In this document: in pieces, positions 10,192-62,079 of the stretch | Position numbering within the stretch: the first letter of the stretch is position 1 | Layout of the letters: each line of letters begins with the position of its first letter | DNA from: Aulosira sp. ZfuVER01 | GTDB lineage: Bacteria; Cyanobacteriota; Cyanobacteriia; Cyanobacteriales; Nostocaceae | DNA: 64,000 nucleotides | Direction: 5' to 3' | Assembly (NCBI GenBank): GCA_034530615.2 | Contig: JAVRCV020000052.1 | Coordinates: 224,001 to 288,000, forward strand | Position numbers and translations under genes: made by a program | Notes under the pieces: model-generated | Seen by the model: the letters and a program-made list of their open reading frames with translations, nothing else | What the model was told of the DNA's origin: nothing | The model's database searches: none

Positions 10192-10578
10192 ATGCTGGGT
10201 AATTTTCAACAAAGCCAACTGCGGATAGAAATCGAAGCGTCAGCAAGTGCAATTCATGACAGTCTGCTGCGTCCAGTGCAATTACAAAAATGGCTGTTAG
10301 GGCAACGCTTTGCTCCTGGAATGCCAGAAGAACTCTACTCCGGCTTCCAGTTTACTACCTGGACTGGACCCGTTGCGATTCATCATCAAGTAAATGTGGC
10401 TAAACCTAATTGCCTCCGCTTTTTACTGAGTGGTGGAATTGATGGGTTTCATGAATGGTATTGGGGAGAAGGTTGGGTGCAGTCCCGCTTGGAAGGAGTG
10501 TCAATGCTACCCCTAAACTTAGGACAAACTTTAAGTTTATTGAGTTTGCGCCAGTTTTTGACGACTCAAAGATCTTGA
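10192..10578 (+). CDS. Conserved hypothetical protein (possible SRPBCC-like fold)
   Basis: 128-aa ORF; IEIEAS...DSLL...W and GIDGFHEWYW pattern. Confidence 0.7.
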   Translation: MLGNFQQSQLRIEIEASASAIHDSLLRPVQLQKWLLGQRFAPGMPEELYSGFQFTTWTGPVAIHHQVNVAKPNCLRFLLSGGIDGFHEWYWGEGWVQSRLEGVSMLPLNLGQTLSLLSLRQFLTTQRS

Positions 10579-10609: not shown

Positions 10610-11944
10610 TTACAAATTGGTTGTGAGCCTTGCTTTTCTCAAAACAAATGTCAGAACCGTCTCTTGTTTGGAAATTATGTCGGCGGTTACTTGCATACCA
10701 GGTTGAATGGCATAGGATTGATTGCCTTTGGTGAGATGAAGTCTATCTGGCTGGATAGTCACCTCATAGTAAGGTGAAACCCCGATATTACTGTTAGTTT
10801 GAGGTGTAATCGCATCGGCGGTAATGCCTCTGACAGCGCCATTGATAGTGCCATAATCCGGATAAGGATAGGCAGAGATTCTCATAATTACTTTGCCTTC
10901 TGAACATTCAGTGACTTGAGCAGCTTTGCATAAGCGAACCTTACTAATATCAGCAGCATCTACACGAGCTTTGACTAGCAAAGGAGCTTGACTAGGAGCA
11001 ATTTGAGCGATCGCTTGTCCTGGTTGTACAACCTGGCCAGGATTTCTGATGTCCAGTTTCAAGACGCTTCCGGCTTCTAAAGTCCGAATCACAGTTTTTT
11101 GTAAATCCCGATTAATTTGTGTAATTTCTTGCTCGTCTAGGTTAATTTTATTCTGAAGGGCTATTTGACCTTGGATCAAGCTTTCTCGTTCTTTATTCAA
11201 TGCGGCGAGGGTAGACTCACCCTTGGCTTTTTCTTGGGCTATCCGTTCTTGGGTCATCGTCACAGCAGCTATACTCGGATTGAGTCCAGTTTTAGCGCGT
11301 TGCAGTTTGGCGATCGCTGCTTTAAAAGCTTGTTCTTTTTCCTTAATTTGCAGTGTGGCGATCGCTCCCGTATTACCTAACTGTTTATACCGCTTCAGTT
11401 CTTCCTTGGCAAACTCTAAAGTAGCTTTTGCTTCTTCTACTTCTGATTGAGTGATATTTTGTCTATCTTGATATTCTCTTTGATTACGACTGAGATCTGC
11501 TTTTGTCGAAGCTATCTCCCTTTGGATGGAATTAGCCTCAGCAGTTATTTGAGTTTGTAGCGCCTTCAATTGCGCATTTATTTGCGAAATTTGTGATTGA
11601 TTCTGTCGAATATTGTCAATGAGTTGGCTTTTTTTAGTCAGGAGTTGAGAGTCATCAATGATTGCGATCGCTTCACCCTTGGCAAGCGTCTGATTTTCTT
11701 TTACTAAGATAGCTTTAACAATTCCTTGACCTGATGCCTCAATAATTCTCTGTTCTCCTGCGGGACGGACAGTCGCAGGCGATCGCACAGTAATCGGATA
11801 TTTGATAATCGCCGCTAACAAAACCGCCAAACCACAAGTTCCGATCAAAACAACTCCCCCCAATTTTGTCCAACGGCTAATCGCCGGAACAAGTTCGTCA
11901 ATTTGGATTTGACGCAGTAATTCTGGGTTATGTTCACTCAGCAT
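10610..11944 (-). CDS. HlyD-family membrane fusion protein, copy 1
   Basis: N-terminal TM, VRPAGE...GIVKAILVKENQ lipoyl-like half, long coiled coil, AYPYPDYGTI, IQPGMQVTADII. Confidence 0.93.
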   Translation of the reverse strand: MLSEHNPELLRQIQIDELVPAISRWTKLGGVVLIGTCGLAVLLAAIIKYPITVRSPATVRPAGEQRIIEASGQGIVKAILVKENQTLAKGEAIAIIDDSQLLTKKSQLIDNIRQNQSQISQINAQLKALQTQITAEANSIQREIASTKADLSRNQREYQDRQNITQSEVEEAKATLEFAKEELKRYKQLGNTGAIATLQIKEKEQAFKAAIAKLQRAKTGLNPSIAAVTMTQERIAQEKAKGESTLAALNKERESLIQGQIALQNKINLDEQEITQINRDLQKTVIRTLEAGSVLKLDIRNPGQVVQPGQAIAQIAPSQAPLLVKARVDAADISKVRLCKAAQVTECSEGKVIMRISAYPYPDYGTINGAVRGITADAITPQTNSNIGVSPYYEVTIQPDRLHLTKGNQSYAIQPGMQVTADIISKQETVLTFVLRKARLTTNL

Positions 11945-12188
11945 GAGTAGAAAACCAGCGCTAAATAAAAGTTAATAAAAATGTCGCTAGAGTCTGATTG
12001 ATATGAGGCTTGCTTTAGTCTTCATCTCTGCTAAATGTGTTGGCTTGAAAGCTACACATCAAATAACCGCCTCATAATCAAAATTTATCTATATTTTACT
12101 GTTTTTTTAATTTTTGCTTAATCTTCCTTTAATAAATGAATCTGATGTCAATACTCAATCTCTTCCATCAGCAATTTTACTGGATAAT

Positions 12189-12230
12189 TGTAGCCTGAGT
12201 TACAAAAAAAATTAATATAAAAAATACCAT
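12189..12230 (+). promoter_or_regulatory. Candidate NtcA-activated (class II) promoter pointing at the RiPP precursor
   Basis: tGTA-gcctgagt-TACa (GTA 12190-12192, TAC 12201-12203), then 21 nt, then TAccaT at 12225-12230. Confidence 0.6.
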
Positions 12231-12698
12231 CTTAGTTTTTTCTAGAAATTGCTCATTTAATTTACAAAAATTTAAAAATATATCTACTCATAAAAATCAA
12301 TTTCTCTACGCTGAGTAGAATAGCAGAGGTCGTTATGGTTAAAAAAATTTATAATTCTCAGCCTGCGTATGAGATGTCATAACCTTTGATAAATCTCAAA
12401 CAAGGAGGTTGATAAAGTTGAGAAACTTCCTTTATCAAAAAGGCTTATCTCTCTAGATATTTATACTTATCTCTATCTAAAGGATGATTTTCGCTGGAAA
12501 AAATAGCATTTAGTATAAATTGCATGAGTTAGCGCAAATCAATCAATTCAAACATTAAGAGATCAGATGCATTTACCAAGTTAAATGCACAAATTTTGAA
12601 CAGGTTAATTGATTGATGCTGACTTATAAATTGCTCAATCAATTATCAGAGCAATTTCCATTCAAACCAAAATTTGAATTAGGAACGGAGGCTTTATA

Positions 12699-12878
12699 AT
12701 GGCTAACGCATCAGGTTATGAACTATTTTCAATTTCTGAAAATTTTTTAACAGAATTATCAGCAGAAGATGAGTCTATAATTACAGGTGGCGGTGGCTCC
12801 TGCTACGGTGGAAGTAAGAGCAAGAGCAAGAAGAGCAAGAGCAAGAAGAGCAAGAGCAAGAGCAAAAAGTACTGCTAA
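12699..12878 (+). CDS. RiPP precursor peptide (59 aa): double-glycine leader and Ser/Lys-rich core
   Basis: Manual translation: MANASGYELFSISENFLTELSAEDESIITGG|GGSCYGGSKSKSKKSKSKKSKSKSKKYC*. RBS GGAGG at 12687-12691; ELS-x-E-x5-TGG leader motif. It lies directly upstream of the kinase, HopA1 and C39-ABC genes, and falls just below the apparent 60-aa cutoff of the ORF track. Confidence 0.9.
   Translation: MANASGYELFSISENFLTELSAEDESIITGGGGSCYGGSKSKSKKSKSKKSKSKSKKYC
12816..12860 (+). repeat. Perfect 15-bp tandem repeat x3 (AAGAGCAAGAGCAAG) encoding (KSKSK)3
   Basis: Copies at 12816-12830, 12831-12845 and 12846-12860, followed by partial AGCAAAAAG. Confidence 0.95.
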
Positions 12879-12976
12879 TAAACTCTGTAAAGGGCAATTA
12901 ATAGGACTAGTAGTTATAGCCCATTAACACAGGTTTCATTCTTTAGCTAAGGCTTCAAACCTATTTTGTTATAAAG

Positions 12977-13029
12977 CTTGTTGTAAAAATTTGGAAACTA
13001 CCGCTCCATATTTTTACAACAAGTTTCTT
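12977..13029 (+). terminator. Stem-loop between precursor and kinase (terminator or mRNA stabiliser)
   Basis: Perfect 14-bp arms CTTGTTGTAAAAAT (12977-12990) and ATTTTTACAACAAG (13010-13023), inner TGGA/TCCA pair, followed by TTTCTT. Confidence 0.65.
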
Positions 13030-13106
13030 GCAAGAATTTTTGGTTAATTTTTTTGATTTTGCGAGCAGTGCAGTTATCAGATTTCTTTTCAAATTAAGTA
13101 TAGATA

Positions 13107-14246
13107 ATGACATTTTTATTAAGCGATAGCAATTTTTTAGAGCATCTAATTGAACATAATTTATGTGAGGTTAAAGAACTAAAGATTAGCCAAATTGAAT
13201 CGAAAAGTTGTAAAAACTTTAATTTATTAGTGGTTTTCTCCAATAATCACCATCTGCTGATTAAGCAAGAACGCCATAACAAAGAAGGTAAAACTCATGG
13301 TGAGTTCTTGCAAGAATGGCGCATTCATGAGTGGTTGCAAAATTTTCAAGAACTAAGTGAATTTCGCGCAATTATATCTGAGGCGCTGCATTTTGATCCC
13401 ATTCGCTCAATTATTATTTTTAATTACCTTAACGAATATTGTGACTTAGAAGATTTTTACGACAACGAACATATTTTTCCCCAAGAAATCGCAGCATCTT
13501 TGGGAACAAGTGTAGCCACAATTCATCGCAAAACTTGGAAATGTCAGAAATATAAAGAATTTTTAGCAAAAGACTCTCAAGATATTAGCAAACATCCTAA
13601 CTTTCTCCGTGGTTTAGAAAGAATTAAACCAGAAATTTTTGCTCATATTTCTCTTGAGAATCTAAAATTCTTTAAGCTCTATCAGCGCCATGATCGCCTG
13701 AGACAAGCGATCGCTCAACTACAAACTGCTTACCAAAGTTGTTGTTTAATCCACAATGACTTAAAGCTTAACAATATTTTATTGCATAACCAATGGAAGC
13801 AATCCCCAAATCAAGCCATAGTTCGCTTGATTGATTGGGAAAAATTTGCTTGGGGAGATCCAGCATTGGATCTAGGAACAATCATCGCTAGTTACTTAAA
13901 TATTTGGTTAGGGAGTTTAGTTATCAGTACAGATATTGATTTGCAAACAGCTTTGCGGTTAGCCGGTACTCCCCTAGATCAGATCCAACCTAGTATATTT
14001 TCTTTAATAAAAGCTTATTTAACTCACTTTCCCGAAATTTTGAAGTTACGTCCTAATTTTTTGCAATTGGTAATGCAATTTACTGGTCTGGCATTAGTTG
14101 AAAAAATACAAATAAAAATAGATTATCACGAAGCTTTTGGCAATATAGGTATCTGTATGCTTCAGGTTGCCAATACTTTATTGTGCCATCCAGATAAATC
14201 AATCCCGATTATTTTGGGACACAGCGCCTCTGAGCTAAATTTTTAA
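13107..14246 (+). CDS. APH/phosphotransferase-family kinase (LanK/TvaC-like RiPP Ser/Thr kinase)
   Basis: KNFNLLV, LLIKQE, catalytic loop LIHNDLKLNNIL, LIDWEK, WGDPALDLG; context next to the precursor and HopA1 gene. Confidence 0.85.
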   Translation: MTFLLSDSNFLEHLIEHNLCEVKELKISQIESKSCKNFNLLVVFSNNHHLLIKQERHNKEGKTHGEFLQEWRIHEWLQNFQELSEFRAIISEALHFDPIRSIIIFNYLNEYCDLEDFYDNEHIFPQEIAASLGTSVATIHRKTWKCQKYKEFLAKDSQDISKHPNFLRGLERIKPEIFAHISLENLKFFKLYQRHDRLRQAIAQLQTAYQSCCLIHNDLKLNNILLHNQWKQSPNQAIVRLIDWEKFAWGDPALDLGTIIASYLNIWLGSLVISTDIDLQTALRLAGTPLDQIQPSIFSLIKAYLTHFPEILKLRPNFLQLVMQFTGLALVEKIQIKIDYHEAFGNIGICMLQVANTLLCHPDKSIPIILGHSASELNF

Positions 14247-14302
14247 CCCACTTAGTATAAAAAATACAACTTTTAATTAAAAAATCATATTAAATTACAA
14301 AA

Positions 14303-15391
14303 TTGATGATGCAATTGCGAGATTTACTACCTCATGAGATACCAAATGCTGCCTTAGAAGACATCGTTACCAAGGTTCAGATTCAATCTGACTTTACTAT
14401 TACCCATGCAGATTACCAACCTTTAAAACTTGCTGATGAAATCGTAGTATCTCTTCAAAACTTACCGATCGAAATCCAGAATAGGTATTTGAATCTGCAA
14501 TTGCGGAATTTTCTCTATGGCATTTATTACAATGGCCAATTAAAAGCTACCCTAGCAAACAATGTAAATCCAGATAGTTTATTAGAAATAAAAAAGCTAG
14601 AGAATAATCAAGCTGGCGCATTCAACCGAGAATTTTACGAAGACTTGCAGAAAAGTAACTGTGGTAAAGGCTACTTTGATCCAAGATGGCTTGTAGTGAA
14701 GCAAGAAAGCGATCATCTACTTGCTGTGCAAAAAGATGATTTGACATTGCATATTGAACCAGAACGCTATCTGCAATTAGCTGAACAATCGGCTAATGTT
14801 GGTGATGAAGTTGCTGTGCTGATGCCTCCTAACCTAATAGAACAGGCATATTATGTGGCAGTAAGTGATGCAGGTTTGGTGAATAAAACTCTTGCAGTAA
14901 ATATTAATTTTAATTTTATCTCTGAAGGTGCGATCGCATTGATGAAAAGTCTGACACAGCAACTTAACGAAATCAATATCCCTTTCACTTTTAAGGTTTT
15001 ATACGATCCTGATAATTACCAGCGTTGTGACTGTGGGGTGCTGCAATTTGAAAGTCACAACTACCACATAGTAAAGCAAATTCTTCAGACTGTGTATATA
15101 GCAAACAAATGCCTTTTTCGGGATTTAGTACCTCTGTTTACAAAGTTACTAGCGCCAGGGCTGAGTTTAGCAGAAGAACCAAATAATAAATTTACTGACC
15201 AAGAGAATTTTGGCATGAACCGCTGCCGAATATTGGCTAATGCCTTATTAGAAGCTTGGCAAGAAGGTGACAACTCCCAACAAGGAAAAATGCATTATGT
15301 AGATCGGCATTTCTCCCAACACTTAATTGATCTGCAACGCCCTTATCTTAATGCCAACTCTGAGGATATCTATCCGATGTTGGATTGTTGA
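14303..15391 (+). CDS. HopA1-domain protein (LanY/TvaD-like phospho-lyase family)
   Basis: GYFDPRW, IPFTFKVL..P..Y.R.D.GVL, PLFTKLLAPGLSLAEEP, FGMNRC..LA.AL recognised as typical of cyanobacterial HopA1-family proteins; start may be ATG 14306 or 14309. Confidence 0.8.
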   Translation: MMMQLRDLLPHEIPNAALEDIVTKVQIQSDFTITHADYQPLKLADEIVVSLQNLPIEIQNRYLNLQLRNFLYGIYYNGQLKATLANNVNPDSLLEIKKLENNQAGAFNREFYEDLQKSNCGKGYFDPRWLVVKQESDHLLAVQKDDLTLHIEPERYLQLAEQSANVGDEVAVLMPPNLIEQAYYVAVSDAGLVNKTLAVNINFNFISEGAIALMKSLTQQLNEINIPFTFKVLYDPDNYQRCDCGVLQFESHNYHIVKQILQTVYIANKCLFRDLVPLFTKLLAPGLSLAEEPNNKFTDQENFGMNRCRILANALLEAWQEGDNSQQGKMHYVDRHFSQHLIDLQRPYLNANSEDIYPMLDC

Positions 15392-15480
15392 TTAGATGAT
15401 GACGATTAATTACCCTATTACCAGGGTGCGCGTTATAGCATGATTGTATTTGCTTGATCGGGGATATTTAGGATAGGGAT

Positions 15481-17634
15481 GTGTCTAATCTAAAATACCG
15501 AGTTATAAGACAATATAGCGAAGAAGATTGTGGGGCTGCTTGTATTGCTTCTATTGCCAAATATTACGGACGGAGTTTTGCTCTCAACCGCATCCGTGAA
15601 GCGGTAGGCACTGGGCAACTGGGAACTACTTTGTTAGGTCTGAGACGAGGAATAGAAGCTTTTGGCTTTAATGCACGTTCCGGCAAAGCATCATCCGATT
15701 TTCTCCACAAGCTGGAACAAATGCCCTTACCAGCAATCATCCACTGGAAGGGTAATCATTGGGTGATTTTGTACGGTCGGCGCGGTAAAAATTATATCAT
15801 TGGCGATCCTGCCATTGGTCTACGTTATCTCTCCAAACAGGAGTTAATTGAGGGTTGGACTAATTGGGTACTGCTACTCTTACAGCCAGATCCCAAGCGT
15901 TTTTTTGTCCAATCGGATGACAAAACTAACCACCTGGAGAAATTTCTTCGGTTAATCCTACCCTACCGAGGTGTGATTTTTGAAGCTGTACTTTGTGCCC
16001 AATTTATTGGTCTGCTTTCTTTAGCTTCACCTTTCTTTATTCAAATTCTCACGGATGATGTTTTAGTTAGAGGAGATTTTCAGCTGCTTTTTGGTATAGT
16101 GCTGGCAGTTACAGTGATGTATATTGTCAGAAGTGGGCTGAAACTAGTAGAAAATATTCTAATAGCTCATTTTGCGCAACGTTTAGAATTAACTTTAACC
16201 CTAGAATTTGGTCAACAAATTCTCCGCCTCCCACTTTCTTATTATGAGTCTCGTCGTAGTGGTGAAATTGTTAGCCGATTAAGAGATATTCAACAAATTA
16301 ATAAATTAATCGCCGATGCGATCGTGAGTTTTCCCAGTAAGTTTTTTATTGCCAGCGTTTCTTTTATCTTGATGTTATTTTATAGCTGGAAACTGACAAT
16401 CACAGGCTTAGCAATCGCTGGGGTGATGACTCTATCTACAGTAGTTTTTCTGCCCGCACTCCAGCAGAAAAATCGTAAACTCATGGTTTTAGAAGCCGAA
16501 AACCAAGGTGTGCTAGTAGAAACATTTAAGGGAGCATTAACGCTAAAAACTACTACAGCTGCTCCGGAATTTTGGGAAGAATTTCAGCGCCGATTTAGTC
16601 AATTAGCAAACCTGGAATTGAGTACTATAAAAATTGCGATTATTAATAAGCAATTTTCTAGGTTAGTTTCTGATATTGGTGGTGCTACCTTACTATATAT
16701 TGGTAGTAGCCTGGTGATTAGCAAAGAGTTAAGTATCGGTCAGTTGCTAGCATTCACTAGCCTCAATTATAATGTTGGGTCTTTAATTGATTTTTTTGTT
16801 GACTTTGCAGACGATTTTACTCGTGTCAGAACAGCGACATCAAGACTTCAGGAAGTCGTCAATTCTACACCAGAAACTCAAGGAGATGCTAACAAATCTT
16901 GGACAGAAATTCCTGATAATGCAGACATTGTTTGCAGCAACCTAAACTTTCACTATCCTGGCAGAGTTGAATTACTAGAGAACTTTTCTGTTACTCTTCC
17001 TGGTAGTAAAGTCATTGCTCTAATTGGCGCATCAGGTTGTGGTAAAAGTTCTCTGGCAAAAATCATTGCTGGGTTATATACAACTCAATCAGGAAATATC
17101 CGCTTTGGCATTTATAACCAGCAAGATTTGTCTTTAGACTGTCTGCGAAGACAGGTGGTGCTTGTTCCCCAAGAACCTCACTTTTGGAGTCGTTCAATTA
17201 TTGAAAATTTTCGCTTAGGTTCTCCCAACGTTTCCTTTAAAAAAATTGTCGAGGCTTGCCGAATTGCTGAGGCTGATGATTTTGTGAGCAAGCTACCCGA
17301 AAAATATCAAACCGTTTTAGGTGAATTTGGTGCTAACATTTCTGGCGGACAAAGACAAAGATTAGCCATAGCTAGAGCAATTGTCAACGATCCACCCATT
17401 CTGATTTTAGATGAATCAACTGCTGGACTCGATCCTGTGAGCGAAGCTAAAGTTTTACATAAACTATTCTCCTATCGTCAAGGTAAAACCACGATTCTCA
17501 TTAGCCACCGTCCCAGAGTAATTGAACGTGCTGATTGGATTGTGGTATTAGAGCAGGGTAGGTTGAAAATACAAGGTTCTTTAGAAAAATTGCGATCGCT
17601 ACCTGGTAAGCATTTAGATTTTTTAACTCCCTAA
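15481..17634 (+). CDS. Peptidase-containing ABC transporter (C39 + TMD + NBD; LanT/SunT-type)
   Basis: QYSEEDCGAAC (catalytic Cys), HWKGNHW (His), GDP (Asp), Walker A GASGCGKS, ISGGQRQR, ILILDES, ISH. Confidence 0.95.
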   Translation: MSNLKYRVIRQYSEEDCGAACIASIAKYYGRSFALNRIREAVGTGQLGTTLLGLRRGIEAFGFNARSGKASSDFLHKLEQMPLPAIIHWKGNHWVILYGRRGKNYIIGDPAIGLRYLSKQELIEGWTNWVLLLLQPDPKRFFVQSDDKTNHLEKFLRLILPYRGVIFEAVLCAQFIGLLSLASPFFIQILTDDVLVRGDFQLLFGIVLAVTVMYIVRSGLKLVENILIAHFAQRLELTLTLEFGQQILRLPLSYYESRRSGEIVSRLRDIQQINKLIADAIVSFPSKFFIASVSFILMLFYSWKLTITGLAIAGVMTLSTVVFLPALQQKNRKLMVLEAENQGVLVETFKGALTLKTTTAAPEFWEEFQRRFSQLANLELSTIKIAIINKQFSRLVSDIGGATLLYIGSSLVISKELSIGQLLAFTSLNYNVGSLIDFFVDFADDFTRVRTATSRLQEVVNSTPETQGDANKSWTEIPDNADIVCSNLNFHYPGRVELLENFSVTLPGSKVIALIGASGCGKSSLAKIIAGLYTTQSGNIRFGIYNQQDLSLDCLRRQVVLVPQEPHFWSRSIIENFRLGSPNVSFKKIVEACRIAEADDFVSKLPEKYQTVLGEFGANISGGQRQRLAIARAIVNDPPILILDESTAGLDPVSEAKVLHKLFSYRQGKTTILISHRPRVIERADWIVVLEQGRLKIQGSLEKLRSLPGKHLDFLTP

Positions 17635-17726
17635 TCACCTCTCATCTTCAGTATTTAATACTAGCTTTTGGATAATCCGACGCAAGCGACTGCGATTCAA
17701 AAACTTCAATACAATGTGGCAATAGC

Positions 17727-19061
17727 CTATAAATCTGTTAGCAACCTTGCTTTTCTTAACATAAATGTCAATACTGTTTCTTGTTGGGCAATAATTTCAG
17801 CCGTTACTTCCATCCCAGATTGAATAGCATAGGATTGATTGCTTTTGCTCAGATTGAGTTGATCGGGCTGGATGATTACCTCATAGTAAGGTACAGATGC
17901 GAGATTGCTATTAGTTTGAGGCGTAATTGCATCAGATGTAATACCTCTGACAGCACCATTTAGCGTACCGTAATCTGGGTAAGGATAGGCAGAAATCCGC
18001 ATAATGACTCTACCCTCTGTACATTGCTTTACTTGGATGGCTTTACATAGCCGCACTTTACTAATATCAGCAGCAACTACACGAGCTTTAACAACTAAAG
18101 GCGCTTGATTGGGGGAAATTTGCGCGATCGCATCTCCAGCGCGTACCACTTGTCCAGGATTTCGGATTTCTAGTTTCAGGATAGTACCTGTGTCTGAGGC
18201 TCGAATGATAGTTTTTTGTAGGTCTGTTGAGACTTGTTTGAATTCTGTTTGAGCAGTGTTGATTTGGTTTTGAATTTCAACGTGGCGACGGATTAGTTCT
18301 TCTTGTTCTTTCTTCAAAATCGCCAGGGTAGATTCACCCTTGGCTTTTTCTTGAGCAATTCGTTCACTTGCGATCGCTACTGTTGCATTACTAGGGTTAA
18401 GTCCAGCTTTGGCACGTTGGAGTCTAGCCAATGACGCTTTAAACGCCTGTTCTTTCTCCTTAATTTGCAGAGTGGCGATCGCTCCTGTATTCCCCAGTTG
18501 CTGATAGCGCTTCATTTCTTCCTTAGCCAATTCTAGAGCGGCTTCCGCTTCTTGCACTTGTGTCTGAGTAGCGATCTGTTGGTCTTGATAATCCCGTTGG
18601 TTGCGACTTAAGTCAGCTTCAGCAGAGGCGATCGCTCGTTGTATAGAATTAGATTCAGCAGTGATTTGAGTTTTTAAGGCCTTGATTTGGGCAACAATTT
18701 GTGCTAACTGTAAATTATTCTGGTGAATCGTGCCTAAAATTTGGCTTTTTTTGGTTTCCAGTTGAGTAGAGTCAATGTAGGCGATCGCATCCCCCTGATT
18801 GACTACCTGATTTTCTTTCACCAAAATACTTTTGACAATTCCTTCACTAGTTGATTGCACTAAGCGGACATCACCAGTCGGACGGACTGTGGCAGATGCG
18901 GTAACGGTGACATTGTACTGAGTCACCCCAGCCAAAATCAAAGCTACACCTACAGTTCCAATGAGGAATAAACCCCCTAATGTTGTCCAAAGACTAATTG
19001 GTGGCAGAAATTGGTCACTGCTGATTGGGCGAATCAAGTCGGGACTGGGGTCGCTATGCAT
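17727..19061 (-). CDS. HlyD-family membrane fusion protein, copy 2
   Basis: Probable start MHSDPSPDL at 19061 gives 444 aa, the same length as copy 1; shared blocks such as QLGNTGAIATLQIKEKEQAFKA and MRISAYPYPDYGT. Confidence 0.92.
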   Translation of the reverse strand: MHSDPSPDLIRPISSDQFLPPISLWTTLGGLFLIGTVGVALILAGVTQYNVTVTASATVRPTGDVRLVQSTSEGIVKSILVKENQVVNQGDAIAYIDSTQLETKKSQILGTIHQNNLQLAQIVAQIKALKTQITAESNSIQRAIASAEADLSRNQRDYQDQQIATQTQVQEAEAALELAKEEMKRYQQLGNTGAIATLQIKEKEQAFKASLARLQRAKAGLNPSNATVAIASERIAQEKAKGESTLAILKKEQEELIRRHVEIQNQINTAQTEFKQVSTDLQKTIIRASDTGTILKLEIRNPGQVVRAGDAIAQISPNQAPLVVKARVVAADISKVRLCKAIQVKQCTEGRVIMRISAYPYPDYGTLNGAVRGITSDAITPQTNSNLASVPYYEVIIQPDQLNLSKSNQSYAIQSGMEVTAEIIAQQETVLTFMLRKARLLTDL

Positions 19062-19217
19062 GAGCGCGAGAATAAGTAAGCAGCATATCAATTTACACAC
19101 AATAAATCCTGTATAGTCAATGGAAATACTACGGGGTTTTTTGTGGCTGCCTTAATTTCACTCTAACCTTCAGCAGCTAGGGCTTGCTCGACTGTTAATT
19201 TTATACTTGAGGTGTTG

Positions 19218-33340: not shown

Positions 33341-34942
33341 TTATTTGGAAATTTTTACTTCTATTTGCCGCATCTGATAATCTGAACCCAACTTATTAGC
33401 GCAAAAACCAATATCTCTCGATTGATTTGGCTCAATTACCCTTCCCCAATCCAAAGGAGTCACAAGATATTGTGTTGCTCCTTGCTGTTGAAAATTAGCA
33501 TTCCAAGAGTTATTAATCCTAGCTTGATTCAGATGAAATGTGAGTTGCCAGTTATTCACCTTAGTATTGCCTGAATTAATAATTTTCAGGTTGGTACAAA
33601 GTCCCGTTTCCCAATTAGCATAAATGTTAGTCGTTACTTGCAGTTGGGCTGTTGATAAAGGAGTTGCGATGATGGGGGAACTTGGAGATGAGGAGACATC
33701 CTGTTGACTAACTTCCATAGATGGCAGCAGTTGAGATAATAATTGCTGCTTGGGGCGATCGTAATTTTGCCAGTCATCTAGCAAGATACCGCCTGTATCA
33801 CCACTATTAGGATTCCAACTCCAGTAGGCAAAGCTTAAGTTATTCTTCTGGATATATTTCACAAATTTATTTTGCCAAATACCCTCTGGGGAAATATTGT
33901 CTACTTGTCGTCCCCCAAACTCGCCAATCAAAATCGGCGCAATATTTTGACTAGAAATATAGTTAAAGCCTGTTTGCCAGCGCTCAATGAGATTTTTCGG
34001 AAAGTTAGATTCTGAAAAGTAAGATTGATTAAACACTCCTGGGCCATACTCATGGGGAGAATAGATGAGCTTATGGCGACGAGATAAGCGTACTGGGTAG
34101 CGCTTGACACCTTCTAAGTTACCACCTTGCCAATGCTGCTTTAGTTTCTGACCAGGAACATTCTTCTCTACACCTTCAACGATAATTAGCCAGTTAGGAT
34201 TGACACTAAGAATAGCATTGCCTGCGCGTTCTGCTGCTAGTCGCCAGTCGGTAGCTAAGTCGTTAGTACCCCAACTAGCTTGTCCGTGCGGTTCATTTTT
34301 TAAATCTGCACCAATGACATTAGCTTGATTTTTGTATCTTTCTGCTAACATTTTCCAAGTATCGATCCAGTCTACTTCTGTAAAACCGTCTCCATACCAA
34401 AGTTCGGGAATCTTTTGATCGTTGAGGCGATGACTGTCGAGTAGGATAAATAATCCTTGCTTTTCAGCTTCCTGAATAATTAAATCCATGACTTCCAAAG
34501 GTGTTTTGCCTTGGAGTTCTATATTGCTACCGATAGTAAAGTCAATACCACTGACATCAGGCGATGCCTGGGGCGGCAAGCTACGCAAGCCTGCCACTGA
34601 ATAAGGCAACCGAATCAGATTATACCCAAGCATTTTAATCTGGGCCAGCATATCCTTATAATCTCGCCGCCATAATCCATGAGGCACATGTGTCTCTGTT
34701 TCCATACCAAACCAGTTCACCCCTCGCAATACCACCACCTTGCCTCTAGCATCGACAATTTTTGCACCCAAGGTGGAAAGCGGTAGCTGTATTGTCATCG
34801 CCGCACTGGCAACACTCAGTTGGCTATGGGCAGGCAATTGTGTCACACTCCCTAGCAAAAACACCACTAAAGTTACGAAAAATAAGAGCAATTGTTTACG
34901 CCACCTAAATTTTTTTGGTTTATTTTTAGAGATTTTTCGCAT
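33341..34942 (-). CDS. Secreted GH5 endoglucanase with C-terminal CBM2
   Basis: Signal/TM; GVNWFGME, IRLPYS, DLKNEPHG (acid/base Glu), SPHEYGP, IGEFGG (nucleophile), WSWNPNSGDTGG; Ser/Pro linker; CBM2 pattern W..G.C...WQLTF...SWNA...GFCA. Confidence 0.9.
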   Translation of the reverse strand: MRKISKNKPKKFRWRKQLLLFFVTLVVFLLGSVTQLPAHSQLSVASAAMTIQLPLSTLGAKIVDARGKVVVLRGVNWFGMETETHVPHGLWRRDYKDMLAQIKMLGYNLIRLPYSVAGLRSLPPQASPDVSGIDFTIGSNIELQGKTPLEVMDLIIQEAEKQGLFILLDSHRLNDQKIPELWYGDGFTEVDWIDTWKMLAERYKNQANVIGADLKNEPHGQASWGTNDLATDWRLAAERAGNAILSVNPNWLIIVEGVEKNVPGQKLKQHWQGGNLEGVKRYPVRLSRRHKLIYSPHEYGPGVFNQSYFSESNFPKNLIERWQTGFNYISSQNIAPILIGEFGGRQVDNISPEGIWQNKFVKYIQKNNLSFAYWSWNPNSGDTGGILLDDWQNYDRPKQQLLSQLLPSMEVSQQDVSSSPSSPIIATPLSTAQLQVTTNIYANWETGLCTNLKIINSGNTKVNNWQLTFHLNQARINNSWNANFQQQGATQYLVTPLDWGRVIEPNQSRDIGFCANKLGSDYQMRQIEVKISK

Positions 34943-35470
34943 AGTTTTAATTACCTTGCATATAAGTCGAGATTCTCAACCAATGATTCAAATCTTTATG
35001 CATTATGTTTTATATAAACACTCTCATCTTGAAATCTGATTATTTAAACTAATTTGCCATAGATAACAGTTTATCTTAGTAAGAGATACCATAATTCTGC
35101 TGATGTACAGGTATGATTGAGATGATTTTTTGTTCTAAGGTAGCAATTCTTCCAACTAGTCTGCACTAGCTTTTATAGAGTAATTTTTATTACTAAATGT
35201 TCCTGACTCTGTGCAAATATTAGAAATCAATTATCATATAAAGCTATATATAGTAAGCTTTTAAGCCTTACCCGTGTGTACTCAAGATTATTTTTATACT
35301 AGTAAGTTAGTGATTAAATTTACGAAAAATTTAACTACTTTTCTAACTTCTTCATGGCTCTCATATTGCACATCAGACATGAAGAGAATAAGTTGGATAC
35401 TAATGCAGTACAAATATTCACTAACCGCTGAAGAGCTATCAAAGCTATATATGGGCAGCGGTAATTAGCC

Positions 35471-36349
35471 ATGCTGCAATCTACCCATTGTTTTATTGAA
35501 CAAATAACCCAAGTTTTAAATATGTCTCTATCTGCATTGCAAAAATTTTTTCTTCCACCTATTATCGCTTCTTGTGGTGTATTTTCATTAATGTCATTTC
35601 CCCTCGCTGCATTAGGGGAAAAGCAAATTGCTATTAAATTTCAAGAAGAACCTATTTTTTATGGCAAACTCAGAGATGTTGCTATTCCTTACGTGATATT
35701 ATCAACGGCACTTAGTGTAGGAGCCGGGATATCCGCTGCCGCCTTCTGCGGTTGGCGACACTCTTCTCAGAAATCAGCAAAATATCAGCAGGAATTATCT
35801 AATTTAGAACAAAATCTAAAGGAAAAAGAAACCTTACTCAAGGAGATCAAACTCTCAGAGTCTCGCCTACAAGTATCTGGATTGAAAGCTTTTTTGGATG
35901 ATGAAGTACCTTTAGACCACACTCTGATTGCAAACACTCTACCTACAACCATATCCCAACCTGTTGTAATACAAACTCCAGCACTGATATATGAACAGCC
36001 AGTTAATGCTGTGCCGCAGGTTGCAACCAAACAAAATAACACTACAACTGCTAAAACTGTGACAGCTAGTTCTAATTTTGCATCTGCCCAAACTTTTCTG
36101 AGTTATGCTCAAGCAAATCCAAACAATATAGAAGAGTCTGTTGCAGCAGATGAAGCTAATAAAACAACAATCACATCATCTGAGTTTGAAGAGTTACAAA
36201 AACAACTGAGGGAGATGATATTGCAAATGCAGACAATGCAGAACAATTTGCGAGTTATGCCCCCAGCAACAAATGCTGCGGCAAAAAACACAGATAAATT
36301 TGAGATCTACTATGATGCTTCCAGTGGCAATGAGTTTCAGTTGCATTAA
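35471..36349 (+). CDS. Hypothetical membrane protein (2 TM plus coiled coil)
   Basis: 292-aa ORF; two hydrophobic segments, heptad region ELSNLEQNLKEKETLLKEIKL; start may be downstream at MSLSAL. Confidence 0.7.
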   Translation: MLQSTHCFIEQITQVLNMSLSALQKFFLPPIIASCGVFSLMSFPLAALGEKQIAIKFQEEPIFYGKLRDVAIPYVILSTALSVGAGISAAAFCGWRHSSQKSAKYQQELSNLEQNLKEKETLLKEIKLSESRLQVSGLKAFLDDEVPLDHTLIANTLPTTISQPVVIQTPALIYEQPVNAVPQVATKQNNTTTAKTVTASSNFASAQTFLSYAQANPNNIEESVAADEANKTTITSSEFEELQKQLREMILQMQTMQNNLRVMPPATNAAAKNTDKFEIYYDASSGNEFQLH

Positions 36350-36356
36350 ACTCACA

Positions 36357-36487
36357 TAAGTAAGTCGGCGGGAATAAACCAAACTATGTTACGCAATGTA
36401 AACATGGTTAAAACCCTTACAATGACCAATGATAAAGGACAAATGGCAGACCTCTCCAGTTGTCTTTAATTGCACCGACCTAACTTA
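36357..36487. mobile_element. MITE-like element of about 130 bp with imperfect terminal inverted repeats
   Basis: Left end TAAGTAAGTCGGCGGGAATAAA versus reverse complement of right end TAAGTTAGGTCGGTGCAATTAAA; TA at both termini; no ORF. Confidence 0.6.
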
Positions 36488-36501
36488 ATACTCAATAAAA
36501 G

Positions 36502-36541
36502 CCACAGATAAACACCGATAATTATCGGTGTTTATCTGTGG
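36502..36541. repeat. Perfect 40-bp palindrome (likely bidirectional terminator or REP-like)
   Basis: CCACAGATAAACACCGATAA|TTATCGGTGTTTATCTGTGG between convergent genes. Confidence 0.85.
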
Positions 36542-36576
36542 TTCGATATAAAAAACATCATGCGCTAAATTTATAT

Positions 36577-37365
36577 TTAGCGCAAAAACTCGGAAGGAAG
36601 TAGAGAAGCATTAGTCTGTCTAGATTTCGCAGGTGCTATTAATGTAGCTCTTGTCACCTTGGGTTCTGGCAGAATTTGATATCGATTTCCCCAACCGCCA
36701 TTGAGATCTTCTGGTTGTGGAAGAGGTGGTATTGTCTTCCCTGTAGGCAGGGGGATTAATAAAGTTTGACTTGCTTGTGTATACTTTTCACCTTCGTTAG
36801 TAAAGCGCACTAACTTACCTTCAAGCTGGTAATTTTCAGGCTTCAGCTTTTCCTGTGATTTATGATTATCTGACTTTTCCCACTGACCAACAGGATCAAA
36901 AGTAGCAATAAATGTCACATTACTTTCGGGGGTGAGTTTCATCGGTGTTTGATTGGCTTGCCATACTTCCTCAAAACTACCATCAGGTGCGACTTGCCAT
37001 AGATTCAAATCGGCTTGCCATTTTCCCTGTTTCACTTGCACAATTTGGCGATCCAAAATAGAACGTTTCGTATTGGCATCAGAGTTTAGCAATGCTCCTA
37101 TTTGTTCTGCTTTAGGACGTAAATAGCGGACTGCTACCACACTAATGCGGCTAGACTCAGGTAAATTTGTACTACCGCTTATTCGGTATAAACTTTGACC
37201 TGATAATATTTGGACATTTTTAATGTCTAGTTGGGTTTCTACTGATGCTTGTTTAACACAGCCATAATTTCCAAGCAACAGCATGAGAGAGGTAAATACT
37301 AAAGGAAAAACGGCAGTTTTATTCTTGATTTGTTGGCAAATATGCTGAAAATACAAATTTAACAT
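36577..37365 (-). CDS. Hypothetical lipoprotein divergent from the cellulose synthase operon
   Basis: Probable ATG at 37365; hydrophobic stretch ending in LGNYGC lipobox-like; ISGSTNLPE beta-rich domain. Confidence 0.65.
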   Translation of the reverse strand: MLNLYFQHICQQIKNKTAVFPLVFTSLMLLLGNYGCVKQASVETQLDIKNVQILSGQSLYRISGSTNLPESSRISVVAVRYLRPKAEQIGALLNSDANTKRSILDRQIVQVKQGKWQADLNLWQVAPDGSFEEVWQANQTPMKLTPESNVTFIATFDPVGQWEKSDNHKSQEKLKPENYQLEGKLVRFTNEGEKYTQASQTLLIPLPTGKTIPPLPQPEDLNGGWGNRYQILPEPKVTRATLIAPAKSRQTNASLLPSEFLR

Positions 37366-37579
37366 CAGAAAATTAGGTTTTAGAGATTTTAAAGCTACAT
37401 AACTGAGTTTTATATTTATTTTGCCCAATTTATTCGCAAAAAATGCAAGCTTTACCAATCTTTAACATAGTTGTTTTGAAAAATATAAAATCTATTTATA
37501 TAGAGGTTAATACAGAGAATATTTGCTAAAGTGGCAACATCAATAAAGTAAAGACTTACTTGTAAATTCAACTAGGCTC

Positions 37580-39331
37580 ATGAGCCAAAAAGTATTAAAT
37601 TGTCTTAGATTTACTTTTGCAAAACAGCCCCAGAAGGTGCATTTACTGCTGAGTGGTGTCGCAGTCTCGATTTTTTGGATACTGGCTGTGAATGAAGCGT
37701 CTTTAGCGCAAGTAGATCCTAATCAACAAGAAGCTAAAGATTTCCAATTGGGCAATACAAAATTGTTACCAGTACCGCAATCATCCATACCTGGAGGTCA
37801 ATCAATACCAAGATTGCAGACAGTACCTCCGCCACCAACAACAGATAGTATAGCGATGCCTGCGGCGGGCTACGCCTATGCACCGATTGCCAATCCCATA
37901 CTAAAAGCTGTGCCACAGCAACCAGTAAATAATCTCCAGCAACAGGAGACTAGCTTTATCCAACAGCAGGTAAAGCCAAGAGCCAATTCTGTTACACCCC
38001 AGGTTGCAAAGCCAAAAAAAGGTGTACAGACTGCAGTTAGTGGGGAGAATTCTGACCTCGGCTTGGGATTGTTGAGGCCGATAGAAAACTCCCCGCAACA
38101 AATGCCCTTACTTCCTAGTAAGGTTGCAGATCAAGAATTTGCTGCACCTACAGCACCAACTTTTAACCAAGTACTTAACTCGCAAACAGCCCCATTACCG
38201 CCACTTCCTGACACAACGACCACGCCGCAATCTAATGTCACCACCCCAACCCCAACTTTTAATCAACTACTAACTACCCCAACTCCGGTTTCGCCAACAC
38301 AACCAAAAACAATAGCTAGTCAACAGCGTCCTGTATTCACTAGCAGTGCTTTAAGAGAACCCTTTTTACAATTTCAAGGTGTCTATGTCACTCAAGGAGG
38401 TGATACGTCAGCACGGGCAAGAGTTACAGGAGTTTACCCACTCTCTCCTCAAGCTTTATTTGGGGCGACTTTAGACTTAACAAGTCAAGGTAGCAGCTTT
38501 GATGATTCTAGAAAAGAGGGTTTAAATATCAACGAGCTTTATTTAGCCACTTCCATCGCCGGCATCCCTAATCTGCGATTTGTGGTAGGTCAAATAGATT
38601 TAACGTCCTATTTTGACCGTAATAGCTTTGCCAAAGATGGAGCTAGCCAATTTTTTAACCCAGTATTTCAAACCAACCCAGCATTAGCAGCAACAGGAAT
38701 TGCTTCTCGTCCCAGTTTGTTAGTTAACTGGAGTGTCACCGACAATATTGAAGCGAAAGCAGCAGTTTTTTCCTCAGCAGACAAAATCAGTGACTTTTCC
38801 TTAGATGGATTTGCAGGAGAAGTTGCCGTTCGTTACGGAAATGCGATTATTCGTGGTACTTATGCCTCAGATCGTGATGCTGGTGTTCGCGATAGCTTTG
38901 CTGAAAGCTATAGCATTGCTAGGGGAAATAATCAATTTGGGCCGATCAAAACTGATCGCGAAGAAGCATACAGTTTGAACGCCGAAGTCTTTATACCCAA
39001 TTTGAAATTAGGTGTTTTTGGGCGTTATGGTCGCTACGAAAACCGTGACCTAGGAGAAGGCGCAAATACCTACGTCTTAGGAGCTACCTTCTTGGATTTA
39101 TTTACCCGAGACGATCGCCTCGGTTTAGCTTATGGGCGTGCTTTATCAAACGATAGCTTGCGTCGTGGAAATACACCAGATGTCTTGGAACTTTACTACG
39201 ATTTTCAACTTGTACCCAATCTGCGGTTAGGTTTTACAGTTCAAGGACGTGATAATTTCTCAGAAACTGTTGTAGGTGTCAGGGTGAAATCAGAATTTAA
39301 TGTGACTCCAAGCGGGAGAGTTGCTCGATGA
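37580..39331 (+). CDS. Outer-membrane beta-barrel protein (carbohydrate porin-like) with long Pro/Gln/Thr-rich N-terminus
   Basis: Signal peptide, low-complexity region, alternating beta strands; GQIDLTSYFDRNSFA, FFNPVF, DRLGLAYG, ELYYDFQL resemble OprB-type porin C-termini. Confidence 0.65.
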   Translation: MSQKVLNCLRFTFAKQPQKVHLLLSGVAVSIFWILAVNEASLAQVDPNQQEAKDFQLGNTKLLPVPQSSIPGGQSIPRLQTVPPPPTTDSIAMPAAGYAYAPIANPILKAVPQQPVNNLQQQETSFIQQQVKPRANSVTPQVAKPKKGVQTAVSGENSDLGLGLLRPIENSPQQMPLLPSKVADQEFAAPTAPTFNQVLNSQTAPLPPLPDTTTTPQSNVTTPTPTFNQLLTTPTPVSPTQPKTIASQQRPVFTSSALREPFLQFQGVYVTQGGDTSARARVTGVYPLSPQALFGATLDLTSQGSSFDDSRKEGLNINELYLATSIAGIPNLRFVVGQIDLTSYFDRNSFAKDGASQFFNPVFQTNPALAATGIASRPSLLVNWSVTDNIEAKAAVFSSADKISDFSLDGFAGEVAVRYGNAIIRGTYASDRDAGVRDSFAESYSIARGNNQFGPIKTDREEAYSLNAEVFIPNLKLGVFGRYGRYENRDLGEGANTYVLGATFLDLFTRDDRLGLAYGRALSNDSLRRGNTPDVLELYYDFQLVPNLRLGFTVQGRDNFSETVVGVRVKSEFNVTPSGRVAR

Positions 39332-41685: not shown

Positions 41686-41840
41686 ATATCTTCACGAAAT
41701 ATTAGCAATCTTCAGTTAATTGTGAACCACCTCAAGGGAACAATAAGGGCAGGTTACGCGAAAAAGAACAAAATACCTAGCATTTCTTTTTCGCTTCCTG
41801 CACCCTCTGCCAACGTTTCACAAATCAAACAGTTCTTAGG

Positions 41841-43103
41841 ATGCGGTACCTTCCAAAAGTGGCAGTTCTTCTCTGTCCAATTTGTCTATCTGCCTGTGTC
41901 TTAGTCGTCAACCCCAAAACACCAAACGATCCAACTCCAGTAGCCAATGTTTCTAGTTCTAATGTAGATGGTAGTGAAAAAATGCCAGTGTTTTTGGCGG
42001 CTTTACCTCAATCCACCGCCAATCGGGAGTTACTAGCCGAAAGTTGGGACAGCTACCGCCGCAAATTTATTCAAGGTGATGGACGGGTAATTGATTATGA
42101 AGCTCGCGATCATTCCACTAGTGAAGGTCAAGCCTATGCCATGTTACGAGCTGTACTCATCGATGACCCCGAAACTTTTGCCCTGACTTTAAAGTGGGCA
42201 GAAAGTAACTTGATGCGGCAACAGAATGGTAAACCTACAGATAGTTTATGGGCTTGGAAGTGGGGACAAAAACAAGATGGTAGCTGGGGTATCATCGACA
42301 GCAACTTTGCCAGTGATGGAGATATAGATGCCATTACTTCCCTGATTTTCGCAGCACGGCGCTGGAATCGTCCTGAGTACATGGAACTAGCGAAAATCAA
42401 ACTGCAAGATTTATGGAAACTTTCTAGCATTTCTGGGACTGGCGGAAAACGCTATCTGCTTCCAGGCCCCGCGTCAGCATTTGCTCCAAATGAATCTACC
42501 CTCTACCTCAACCCTTCTTATCTTGCTCCCTATGCTTTTCGCATTTTTGCACAAATCGATCCTGCACATGACTGGTTGAGTTTAGTAGACAGCAGCTACC
42601 AGATTTTGGAAAATTCTGCACAGCTTTCTACCGTGGGTTTACCTAGTGATTGGGTAGCTCTAAATCTAAAAACAAATCAATTCCAGACTACACCAAACTC
42701 TAGTGCGCTCAAGAGTTTGTATGGTTTTGATGCTTATCGAGTGTGGTGGCGGTTATCACTTGATGCTGTCTGGTTTAATTCACCGCAAGCACACCAATAT
42801 TTAGAGAAATTCACTCAACATTTACAAAATTTGTGGACTCAACAATCGTACATCCCGGCACGTATCGACCTCCAAGGAAAAGCATTAGTAGATTACGATG
42901 CTACATCTCAATACGCCATGTTGTATACAGCTATGCGCTTGGTTAAACCCACACTAGCGCAAGAAATACTAGAGAAAAAATTGCTACCTCAATACAAGCA
43001 AGGAATTTGGGGCGAACACTCAGCATATTACACCCAAAACCTGGTTTGGTTAGGGTTACTGCCTCCAGATTCAATGCCGAAACAGCTCATCAAAGCTAAT
43101 TAG
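41841..43103 (+). CDS. bcsZ: GH8 endoglucanase (BcsZ-like lipoprotein)
   Basis: Lipobox LSAC; TSEGQAYAML, NFASDGD, NPSYL, YGFDAYRV. Confidence 0.88.
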   Translation: MRYLPKVAVLLCPICLSACVLVVNPKTPNDPTPVANVSSSNVDGSEKMPVFLAALPQSTANRELLAESWDSYRRKFIQGDGRVIDYEARDHSTSEGQAYAMLRAVLIDDPETFALTLKWAESNLMRQQNGKPTDSLWAWKWGQKQDGSWGIIDSNFASDGDIDAITSLIFAARRWNRPEYMELAKIKLQDLWKLSSISGTGGKRYLLPGPASAFAPNESTLYLNPSYLAPYAFRIFAQIDPAHDWLSLVDSSYQILENSAQLSTVGLPSDWVALNLKTNQFQTTPNSSALKSLYGFDAYRVWWRLSLDAVWFNSPQAHQYLEKFTQHLQNLWTQQSYIPARIDLQGKALVDYDATSQYAMLYTAMRLVKPTLAQEILEKKLLPQYKQGIWGEHSAYYTQNLVWLGLLPPDSMPKQLIKAN

Positions 43104-43243
43104 CAGGAGGTTGTGTTGTTTAGTCAAAAAGAATAGGAGCTATAAAAATCACAAATTTAGTGATTATTTTCACTTAAGAAATCGCATTTAAAAACCAAAA
43201 CTCGAACAATATATCTACTATCTACCATCACTCACACCTTACC

Positions 43244-45601: not shown

Positions 45602-45694
45602 AAAATGCAAATATTCGCAGATATAACAAATAATTATCTGTATCTATTTGTGAATAAAAGCTCAAATTTCACATCTAAAAATTGAACATTACAA

Positions 45695-61938: not shown

Positions 61939-62079
61939 TTTAGCAGTAAAATTTCAAATGAATTACTAATTAAATTGATACCAACCTAATTATACTGCTG
62001 CAATTTACAGCAATTAATTAAGATAGATTTTATTTTTTGGTAAGCTGTAAGCGCTGCTATCAGGAGTATCTGTTGCGCT

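Follow-up and report, generated by a model that had tools for sequence, protein, structure and literature searches.

The subject of this report is a compact block of genes in the 64-kb window analysed here (the whole stretch, 64,000 nucleotides of contig JAVRCV020000052.1 from the cyanobacterium Aulosira sp. ZfuVER01), in which a small double-glycine precursor peptide is encoded together with a stand-alone kinase, a HopA1-like protein and a C39-ABC exporter. The HopA1 protein looks like a pseudo-lyase, two of its four elimination-linked residues being replaced, its kinase partner retains the catalytic residues, and the product is likely to be an exported poly-phosphoserine/lysine zwitterion, not a poly-dehydroalanine peptide. 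The ORF (open reading frame) list of the window has all six frames at the coordinates and on the strands that a preliminary description of this DNA had given them, in the order hlyD(-), precursor(+), kinase(+), HopA1-like(+), C39-ABC(+), hlyD(-):

10610-11944, - strand: hlyD1, periplasmic adaptor travelling with the cassette, divergent from the precursor gene (Pfam HlyD_3)
12687-12691, + strand: GGAGG ribosome-binding site of the precursor (sequence)
12699-12878, + strand: precursor, 59 amino acids (ORF, ribosome-binding site, relatives)
12699-12791, + strand: precursor leader, 31 amino acids with a double-glycine end (predicted cleavage site)
12792-12878, + strand: predicted core, 28 amino acids, then stop (sequence and relatives)
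13107-14246, + strand: LanK/TvaC-like APH-fold Ser/Thr kinase (Pfam, NCBIfam, motifs)
14303-15391, + strand: HopA1/LanY-fold protein, predicted pseudo-lyase (Pfam, profile alignment, AlphaFold model)
15481-17634, + strand: C39 peptidase-ABC exporter, 717 amino acids (Pfam; peptidase Cys/His motifs, Walker motifs)
17727-19061, - strand: hlyD2, resident adaptor gene (Pfam HlyD_3; orthologues in congeners)

The likely true start of the HopA1-like gene is ATG 14306 or 14309; the hlyD2 frame extends over 17727-19100(-), with its probable start at ATG 19061.

The precursor, its exporter and the limits of the cassette

The Pfam labels expected of these genes were all matched: APH for the kinase (PF01636, E 4.5e-9, above cut-off), HopA1 for its neighbour (PF17914, 180 bits), C39, ABC membrane and ATPase domains for the exporter, and HlyD_3 twice. 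Against the NCBIfam model LxmK (NF038156) the kinase scores 82 bits, below the cut-off of 315.

The precursor can be taken as real, above chance, because a GGAGG stands 7 nt upstream of its ATG, because it has a double-glycine leader and a 76% identical orthologue in Calothrix sp. NIES-2100, and because similar peptides occupy the equivalent place in 35 other loci. The leader has Leu at -12, Glu at -7 and Ile at -4; it ends in four consecutive Gly, so that the predicted cut site may shift, and it matches NF038167 weakly (14.8 bits, below the cut-off of 32). The core, GGSCYGGSKSKSKKSKSKKSKSKSKKYC, has 9 Ser, 11 Lys, two Cys (one near each end) and no Thr among its 28 residues, and seven of the nine Ser directly follow a Lys. 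With the catalytic Cys/His of the C39-ABC protein, the HlyD adaptor and TolC-family proteins (two such ORFs lie on host contig C10), all the parts of a type I export route appear to be at hand.

The preliminary description had excluded a cyclase, decarboxylase, methyltransferase or YcaO from the window. LanC, HFCD and YcaO indeed have no match among the scanned window ORFs (the scan did not extend to the three RNA polymerase ORFs or to overlapping shadow ORFs). The same holds for YcaO/TfuA by Pfam in those ORFs (the remaining genome was not searched for YcaO), and DUF4135 (LanM-type) has no match within the cassette. A methyltransferase is present, however, at 1083-1721, 9 kb off, unrelated and outside the cassette. 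Scans for promoters and terminators yielded no excess over shuffled sequence (real versus shuffled, 14 versus 23 and 7 versus 6).

Both HlyD genes are real, as had been said, but only one of them belongs to the cassette. Nine of 14 congeners have an hlyD2 orthologue (81-84%) and no visible cassette at this site; the orthologue lies directly between usp and the gene for a 128-residue protein (10192-10578 in the window). The mobile unit is therefore hlyD1-precursor-kinase-HopA1-C39, and hlyD2 appears, from its distribution, to predate the cassette at the site; it may or may not serve the exporter. It is 67% identical to hlyD1, and the synonymous divergence (dS) between them, 1.7, together with its residence in congeners, rules it out as a recent duplicate or a required part. 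In the nine congeners (L250-L258) it has no adjoining ABC partner. No clear junction was found for a hlyD1/hlyD2 crossover as the mechanism of insertion. In Calothrix sp. NIES-2100 (L008, 7001-9503), whose hlyD1 is 93% identical, the cassette sits at the same site without hlyD2 and has suffered an 828-bp deletion (equivalent to 14998-15825 of the window), by which HopA1 has lost its second half and the exporter its C39 domain; the precursor, kinase and hlyD1 frames are still open.

The kinase and its HopA1 partner

The significance of the HopA1 protein is best judged against CaoY, in which, as reported, K219A abolishes elimination, R187A nearly abolishes it and R229Q impairs it, while Tyr236 corresponds to the conserved catalytic Tyr of SpvC; the R187A product is mostly phosphorylated peptide with a minor dehydrated species (PMC9486802). 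The window protein has Asn (N200, codon 14900-14902) at the place of Arg187 and Gln (Q248, codon 15044-15046) at that of Tyr236, and retains K231 and R241, the equivalents of K219 and R229. When a profile was built from 20 cyanobacterial HopA1s, it could be aligned through all four catalytic columns to LxmY, a lyase of solved structure (9dk1_B; E 1.4e-9), and the spacing of these residues, 31/10/7, is that of CaoY. LxmY is also the best fold match of the AlphaFold model (pLDDT 85; E 1.3e-15, TM 0.67). That the gene is a pseudogene is ruled out by its open frame and by a ratio of non-synonymous to synonymous substitution (dN/dS) of about 0.2, the value found for both kinase and HopA1 of the cassette. 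A plant-effector role was likewise rejected, the fold being nearer to LxmY than to Pseudomonas HopA1 and the gene being coupled to a kinase and a precursor.

In the kinase, the catalytic residues K53, E70, H216, D218, N223 and D243 are all present. The poly-phosphoserine option of the preliminary description gains from this conjunction of an altered lyase with intact kinase motifs; its other option, a poly-dehydroalanine peptide made by an active pair, is disfavoured by the loss of the Arg187 and Tyr236 equivalents and by the seven Ser that follow Lys, since Lys directly before phosphoserine is reported to have hindered elimination in CaoY (PMC9486802).

Kinase and HopA1 are predicted to form a complex (ipSAE 0.75, against 0.00 for the best of three controls), with at least 72% of contacts shared between runs and partner pLDDT of at least 84; the ipSAE mark applied is one that 116 of 157 solved pairs and 2 of 215 mismatched pairs reach. 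The passing of this docking test may reflect likeness to the solved LxmKY. At the interface, 86-100% of altered HopA1 copies retain L147, P175 and N177. LanK and LanY are described as poorly soluble apart, LanK needing LanY for its solubility (PMC9486802; for LxmKY, via a review), and this offers a reason to keep a dead lyase.

Lyase state and core type in related loci

The survey of cyanobacterial HopA1 neighbourhoods that the preliminary description had proposed was made with 213 non-redundant HopA1s, gathered by ranked searches at the level of relatives, family, order and class and in metagenomes. Of these, 116 were kept, the rest being 69 without a precursor in the fetched DNA, 23 two-pair loci, four with a repeated core and one fusion. 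Thirty-six of the 116 loci with a readable precursor have lost the Arg187 equivalent (Arg-lost), and all 80 that have it (intact) also retain the full four-residue signature. Tyr236, which was not used for grouping, is kept in 3/36 Arg-lost and 80/80 intact proteins, and K219 in 21/36 and 80/80; R229 is kept in 30 of the 36.

Altered HopA1s pair with polar cationic cores. The median share of Lys plus Arg in the core is 0.30 for the Arg-lost and 0.07 for the intact group, that of hydrophobic residues 0.02 versus 0.43, and the share of Ser/Thr flanked by Lys/Arg 0.69 versus 0.10; the threshold set for a cationic-polar core is passed by 27 of 36 and 1 of 80, respectively. The Arg-lost cores comprise Ser-Lys repeats, Arg-Ser repeats, poly-Arg with flanking Ser and Gly/Ser-rich runs, and the pairing recurs in dozens of cyanobacteria. 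The 36 loci cover 13 family codes and some unassigned records. Protamine-like poly-Arg or Arg-Ser/Arg-Thr dipeptide-repeat cores lie beside the Arg-lost HopA1s of L166, L168, L173, L175, L209 and L237. Gene neighbours that recur at the 36 loci are the kinase (35), the C39 exporter (27), HlyD (18) and a family of unlabelled ORFs of ~125 residues (9); no other enzymes, LanC, LanD and LanX included, recur beside them. The proposal of a minimal, secreted and apparently uncharacterised cassette for a RiPP (a peptide made on the ribosome and modified after translation) is supported. A short type of C39 exporter (>55% identity) is found, in the fetched DNA, beside 17 of the 36 Arg-lost and none of the 80 intact loci.

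The kinases of the Arg-lost loci keep K53, H216 and N223 in 35/35 and D218 and D243 in 34/35. Kinase position 342 is Lys in 73/74 intact-lyase partners and Glu or Asp in 20/35 Arg-lost partners, the window kinase having Glu. A whole-protein acidic shift was not seen in kinase or HopA1 of the Arg-lost group (p 0.25 and 0.27). The altered HopA1s are under purifying selection: dN/dS is 0.11-0.38 for seven altered pairs versus 0.15-0.33 for four intact pairs. The 69 columns that are at least 97% conserved in intact lyases have a median retention of 83% in the altered group, the three least retained being the Arg187 equivalent, Q180 and the Tyr236 equivalent. Altered copies did not come out on top in a search with a profile built from altered HopA1s.

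Two further explanations are to be weighed at this point. The first has the remodelled pocket catalysing a different reaction on the phosphorylated core, and the continuing selection would fit, as would the acidic residues that recur at 180 (Q180 to Glu/Asp in 28/36) and 235 (N235 to Asp/Glu in 24/36). These acidic residues are the only recurrent gains, however; the Arg has given way to at least ten different residues, variation at the replaced positions is free, and none is newly invariant among the 36. No new catalytic residue is thus evident, and a new reaction is highly improbable. In our preferred reading, the altered cavity would instead have lost phosphate binding and come to accommodate a cationic core, which fits the acidic gains at 180 and 235 and at position 342 of the kinase. 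The second explanation is that the pair leaves the peptide unmodified, or that the cassette is a relic in decay, with the peptide exported as it is or not made at all. A broken copy in NIES-2100 and a close kinase (87%) in only one of 14 congeners speak for this. Against it stand the frames of the window, all of them open, the retained kinase catalytic residues, the dN/dS of kinase and HopA1, and a four-gene layout conserved across 13 family codes; we regard it as very unlikely.

Two groups of clusters diverge in other ways. In L113 (367-528) and L193 the HopA1 has Trp in place of the Arg, has Cys at both R229 and Y236, and is placed by the tree among intact lyases. The precursor of L113 has an acidic core rich in Thr and Pro, possibly a separate route to an acidic phosphothreonine peptide. 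The two-pair clusters L057, L076, L078, L083, L085, L086, L088, L090, L093, L095 and L096, omitted from the counts, have an intact pair and a second one, whose kinase is divergent (27-30%) and whose HopA1 has none of the four lyase residues. The last residues of their precursors are three Leu, a Cys and one more, and the second module may be cyclase-like.

The proposed product and its known counterparts

The scheme that we favour begins with an LxmKY-type heterodimer, HopA1 being kept as a folding and substrate-guiding partner. The kinase would bind the leader and use ATP to phosphorylate up to nine Ser, and the phosphates would persist, elimination being lost or very slow. The C39 domain would then cut after the double glycine, the 28-residue core leaving through the ABC/HlyD/TolC channel with up to nine phosphoserines set against 11 Lys, and its two terminal Cys could form a disulfide outside. 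The least certain step is the last, in which the zwitterion would most probably associate with itself and attach to the polysaccharide of the sheath, to cations or to mineral surfaces.

Several considerations weigh against this scheme. The mutants were made in CaoY, which is only distantly homologous (identity to the solved LxmY is 18-19%), and cover R187, K219 and R229, no Y236 mutant appearing in the text consulted; R187A still made its minor dehydrated species (PMC9486802), and the window protein keeps K231 and R241. Two intact lyases of the host (contigs C17 and C55) could act in trans. The deletion through HopA1 and the C39 domain of NIES-2100 indicates that the cassette is dispensable. 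The survey sample was picked by similarity rank and is non-random; six of the 36 Arg-lost cores are more than 20% hydrophobic, those of L227 and L230 being clearly ordinary, and the intact lyase of L233 goes with a cationic core. On the kinase tree, 28 of 35 Arg-lost loci, the window's included, form one clade (99% local support), the remainder being one five-member clade and two single rows elsewhere. This tree has four changes of state, of which only two make supported independent pairs, and a sign test is not significant; a HopA1 tree without the catalytic columns likewise needs four. The contrast is inflated by kinship and the very small p-values of the survey overstate it: the pattern is to be read as one old Arg-lost lineage, with perhaps two losses in parallel, and not as 36 events independent of one another.

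In another explanation, residual activity of the altered lyase, or an intact lyase from another locus pairing with this kinase, would dehydrate some or all Ser, the dehydroalanine then reacting with the terminal Cys or with adjacent Lys to give lanthionine or lysinoalanine. The retention of K219 and R229 equivalents in many of the 36, the trace dehydration left by CaoY R187A, the two or more Cys found in 19 of the 36 cores and the presence elsewhere in the genome of two intact lyases and two LanC-domain proteins are all in keeping with this, and lanthionine can form without a cyclase (PMC12291118). But the window HopA1 lacks both Arg and Tyr, many relatives that lack three or four of the residues have the same type of core, Lys beside phosphoserine hinders elimination in the reported CaoY experiments (PMC9486802), and 12 of the 36 cores have no Cys. 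Dehydration by either route is distinctly unlikely in our judgement.

As to what an exported phosphopeptide might do, the favoured role, a self-associating sheath or surface-binding material, is speculative and is drawn by analogy with silaffin-1A (PMC4557024) and the EbfG biofilm proteins (PMC4997328). Diatom silaffin-1A is described as a short Ser/Lys peptide, zwitterionic and self-assembling, in which every Ser is phosphorylated; it is eukaryotic, made by unrelated enzymes and carries polyamines on its Lys, so the resemblance would be one of chemistry and not of homology (PMC4557024). EbfG1-4 and PteB of Synechococcus elongatus resemble the window system in being a cyanobacterial set of small double-glycine proteins with C39 export, and are reported to be needed for biofilm; the abstract of that account mentions no modifying kinase, and the analogy would be a functional one (PMC4997328). 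It is also conceivable, as speculation, that in the high pH near photosynthesising filaments phosphoserines might eliminate slowly without an enzyme and cross-link to adjacent Lys or Cys, so curing the material outside the cell.

The main alternative for the role accepts the same enzymology and differs only in what the product is for. The phosphates would be a temporary mask that neutralises a polycationic, nucleic-acid- or membrane-binding peptide in the producer, extracellular phosphatases later freeing the active form. Export by a double-glycine leader and C39 peptidase is typical of bacteriocins, and the protamine-like cores of L166, L168, L173, L175 and L209 have too few Ser for their charge to be cancelled. 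Yet neither a phosphatase nor an immunity gene is a recurrent neighbour of the 36 loci, the cores are of low complexity without the hydrophobic face usual in membrane-active peptides, and Gly-rich, weakly charged cores also occur (L211, L225). We consider a mask unlikely.

The layout of the cassette has been catalogued before. Eyles et al. (2021) listed 1,340 HopA1 proteins, 96% of them adjoining a phosphotransferase, and grouped 570 cyanobacterial peptides, from 183 clusters, as Family 1A without determining the products; their table includes a HopA1 entry for Calothrix sp. NIES-2100 and Ser/Lys- and Arg-rich peptides with this leader in networks 1, 103 and 142 (PMC8153245). The closest listed relatives of the window precursor are in network 103 and other Ser/Lys-rich ones in network 1; membership of Family 1A is by joining network 1 at 40% identity, and the window precursor may or may not belong to it. 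Cyanobacterial precursors (type-B LanA) were also noted by Liang et al. in 2022 (PMC9486802). Since HopA1, phosphotransferase, double-glycine precursor and peptidase/transporter are features of the catalogued clusters and all present in the window, the absence of cyclase and decarboxylase is not in itself new (PMC8153245). That catalogue is bioinformatic, and its text treats the pair as a dehydratase, with intact and altered lyases unseparated. What appears to be new is an altered-lyase branch, with intact kinase, of these catalogued clusters. No characterised product of a cyanobacterial kinase/HopA1 pair and no lyase-dead LanY was found in the open-access literature, in which the figure supplement of Eyles et al. 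was not covered.

With the class V and thioamitide pairs LanK/LanY (CaoK/CaoY; LxmK/LxmY, PDB 9DK1-3; TsaC/TsaD) the window shares kinase-HopA1 adjacency, fold and a predicted heterodimer that forms via the beta-sheet region of HopA1. It has the stand-alone LanK-type kinase (PF01636) with catalytic motifs and the stand-alone LanY fold (PF17914) by which class V is defined; it lacks the full R187/K219/R229/Y236 signature and, in the scanned window ORFs, LanD with LanX (Va) or LanC (Vb). It differs further in having no methyltransferase or reductase in the cassette, a cationic low-complexity core, and a double-glycine leader with C39 export. Judged by the lyase residues and cyclisation genes that define the class, then, the cassette would not be a class V lanthipeptide system. 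For the proposed chemistry a precedent is phospeptin (EmbA/EmbM), from another family of enzymes, for which a LanM-derived enzyme with mutated elimination residues is reported to yield a linear poly-phosphorylated peptide (PMC9259500); in the cassette, too, elimination residues are altered and kinase residues retained. Phospeptin, as described, involves one LanM-derived enzyme, Thr sites and one candidate species (PMC9259500), whereas here the class V system consists of two proteins, the Ser lie within Lys/Arg repeats and the spread is over many cyanobacterial families. By analogy, the cassette would work like phospeptin by means of a different pair of enzymes.

Phosphorylated end products are described as rare among bacterial natural products (PMC12639078). 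That the window represents a widespread, undescribed class, in which a class V kinase held by a dead lyase phosphorylates Ser-Lys, Arg-Ser and poly-Arg repeats and silaffin-like zwitterions are exported to self-assemble as sheath, adhesion or mineral-binding material, is offered tentatively, as a possibility that we would not bet on. If the favoured scheme is right, a considerable fraction of those cyanobacterial clusters that are now mined as loci for class V lanthipeptides or dehydratases would make phosphopeptides instead, and a single alignment column would distinguish the two kinds. Poly-phosphorylated RiPPs would then have a second, independent origin, in which a pseudo-enzyme is kept as scaffold. 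The scheme would also provide a compact kinase able to poly-phosphorylate cationic repeat peptides, of use in biomineral and adhesive materials, and a candidate component of the matrix in cyanobacteria that form mats and sheaths.

Other loci in the host genome and window

The host genome has three further kinase/HopA1 pairs, two LanC-domain proteins and TolC-family genes. On contig C17 (L001, 333-6995) an intact kinase/HopA1 pair is followed directly by a LanM (DUF4135 and LanC) and two Cys-containing precursors, making two dehydration systems in one cluster. On C55 (L002, 2480-11763) the intact pair is found with an aldo/keto reductase-like gene, a PPIase-like gene and several hydrophobic precursors; upstream is a radical-SAM-like gene with Nif11-type peptides (labels by inspection of the sequence). 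The third pair, on C11 (L003, 7991-10477; also L038, L039 and L155), has ~45% kinase identity, is found in most of the family members searched and has Gln for the essential Lys219. It adjoins menaquinone-type genes, no precursor or exporter being found alongside, and is possibly a housekeeping kinase with another dead lyase. Four further C39 exporters of 714-725 residues (60-64% identity; contigs C32, C41, C16 and C49, L004-L007) each lie beside small double-glycine-type ORFs, without kinase or HopA1.

Elsewhere in the window, two tandem calcineurin-like metallophosphoesterases of 276 residues, 65% identical in DNA, are encoded at 61108-62910, 42 kb from the cassette. A cellulose synthase region at 33341-48301 comprises a GH5 cellulase with CBM2, an OprB-like porin, a TPR protein, GH8, BcsB and BcsA with PilZ.

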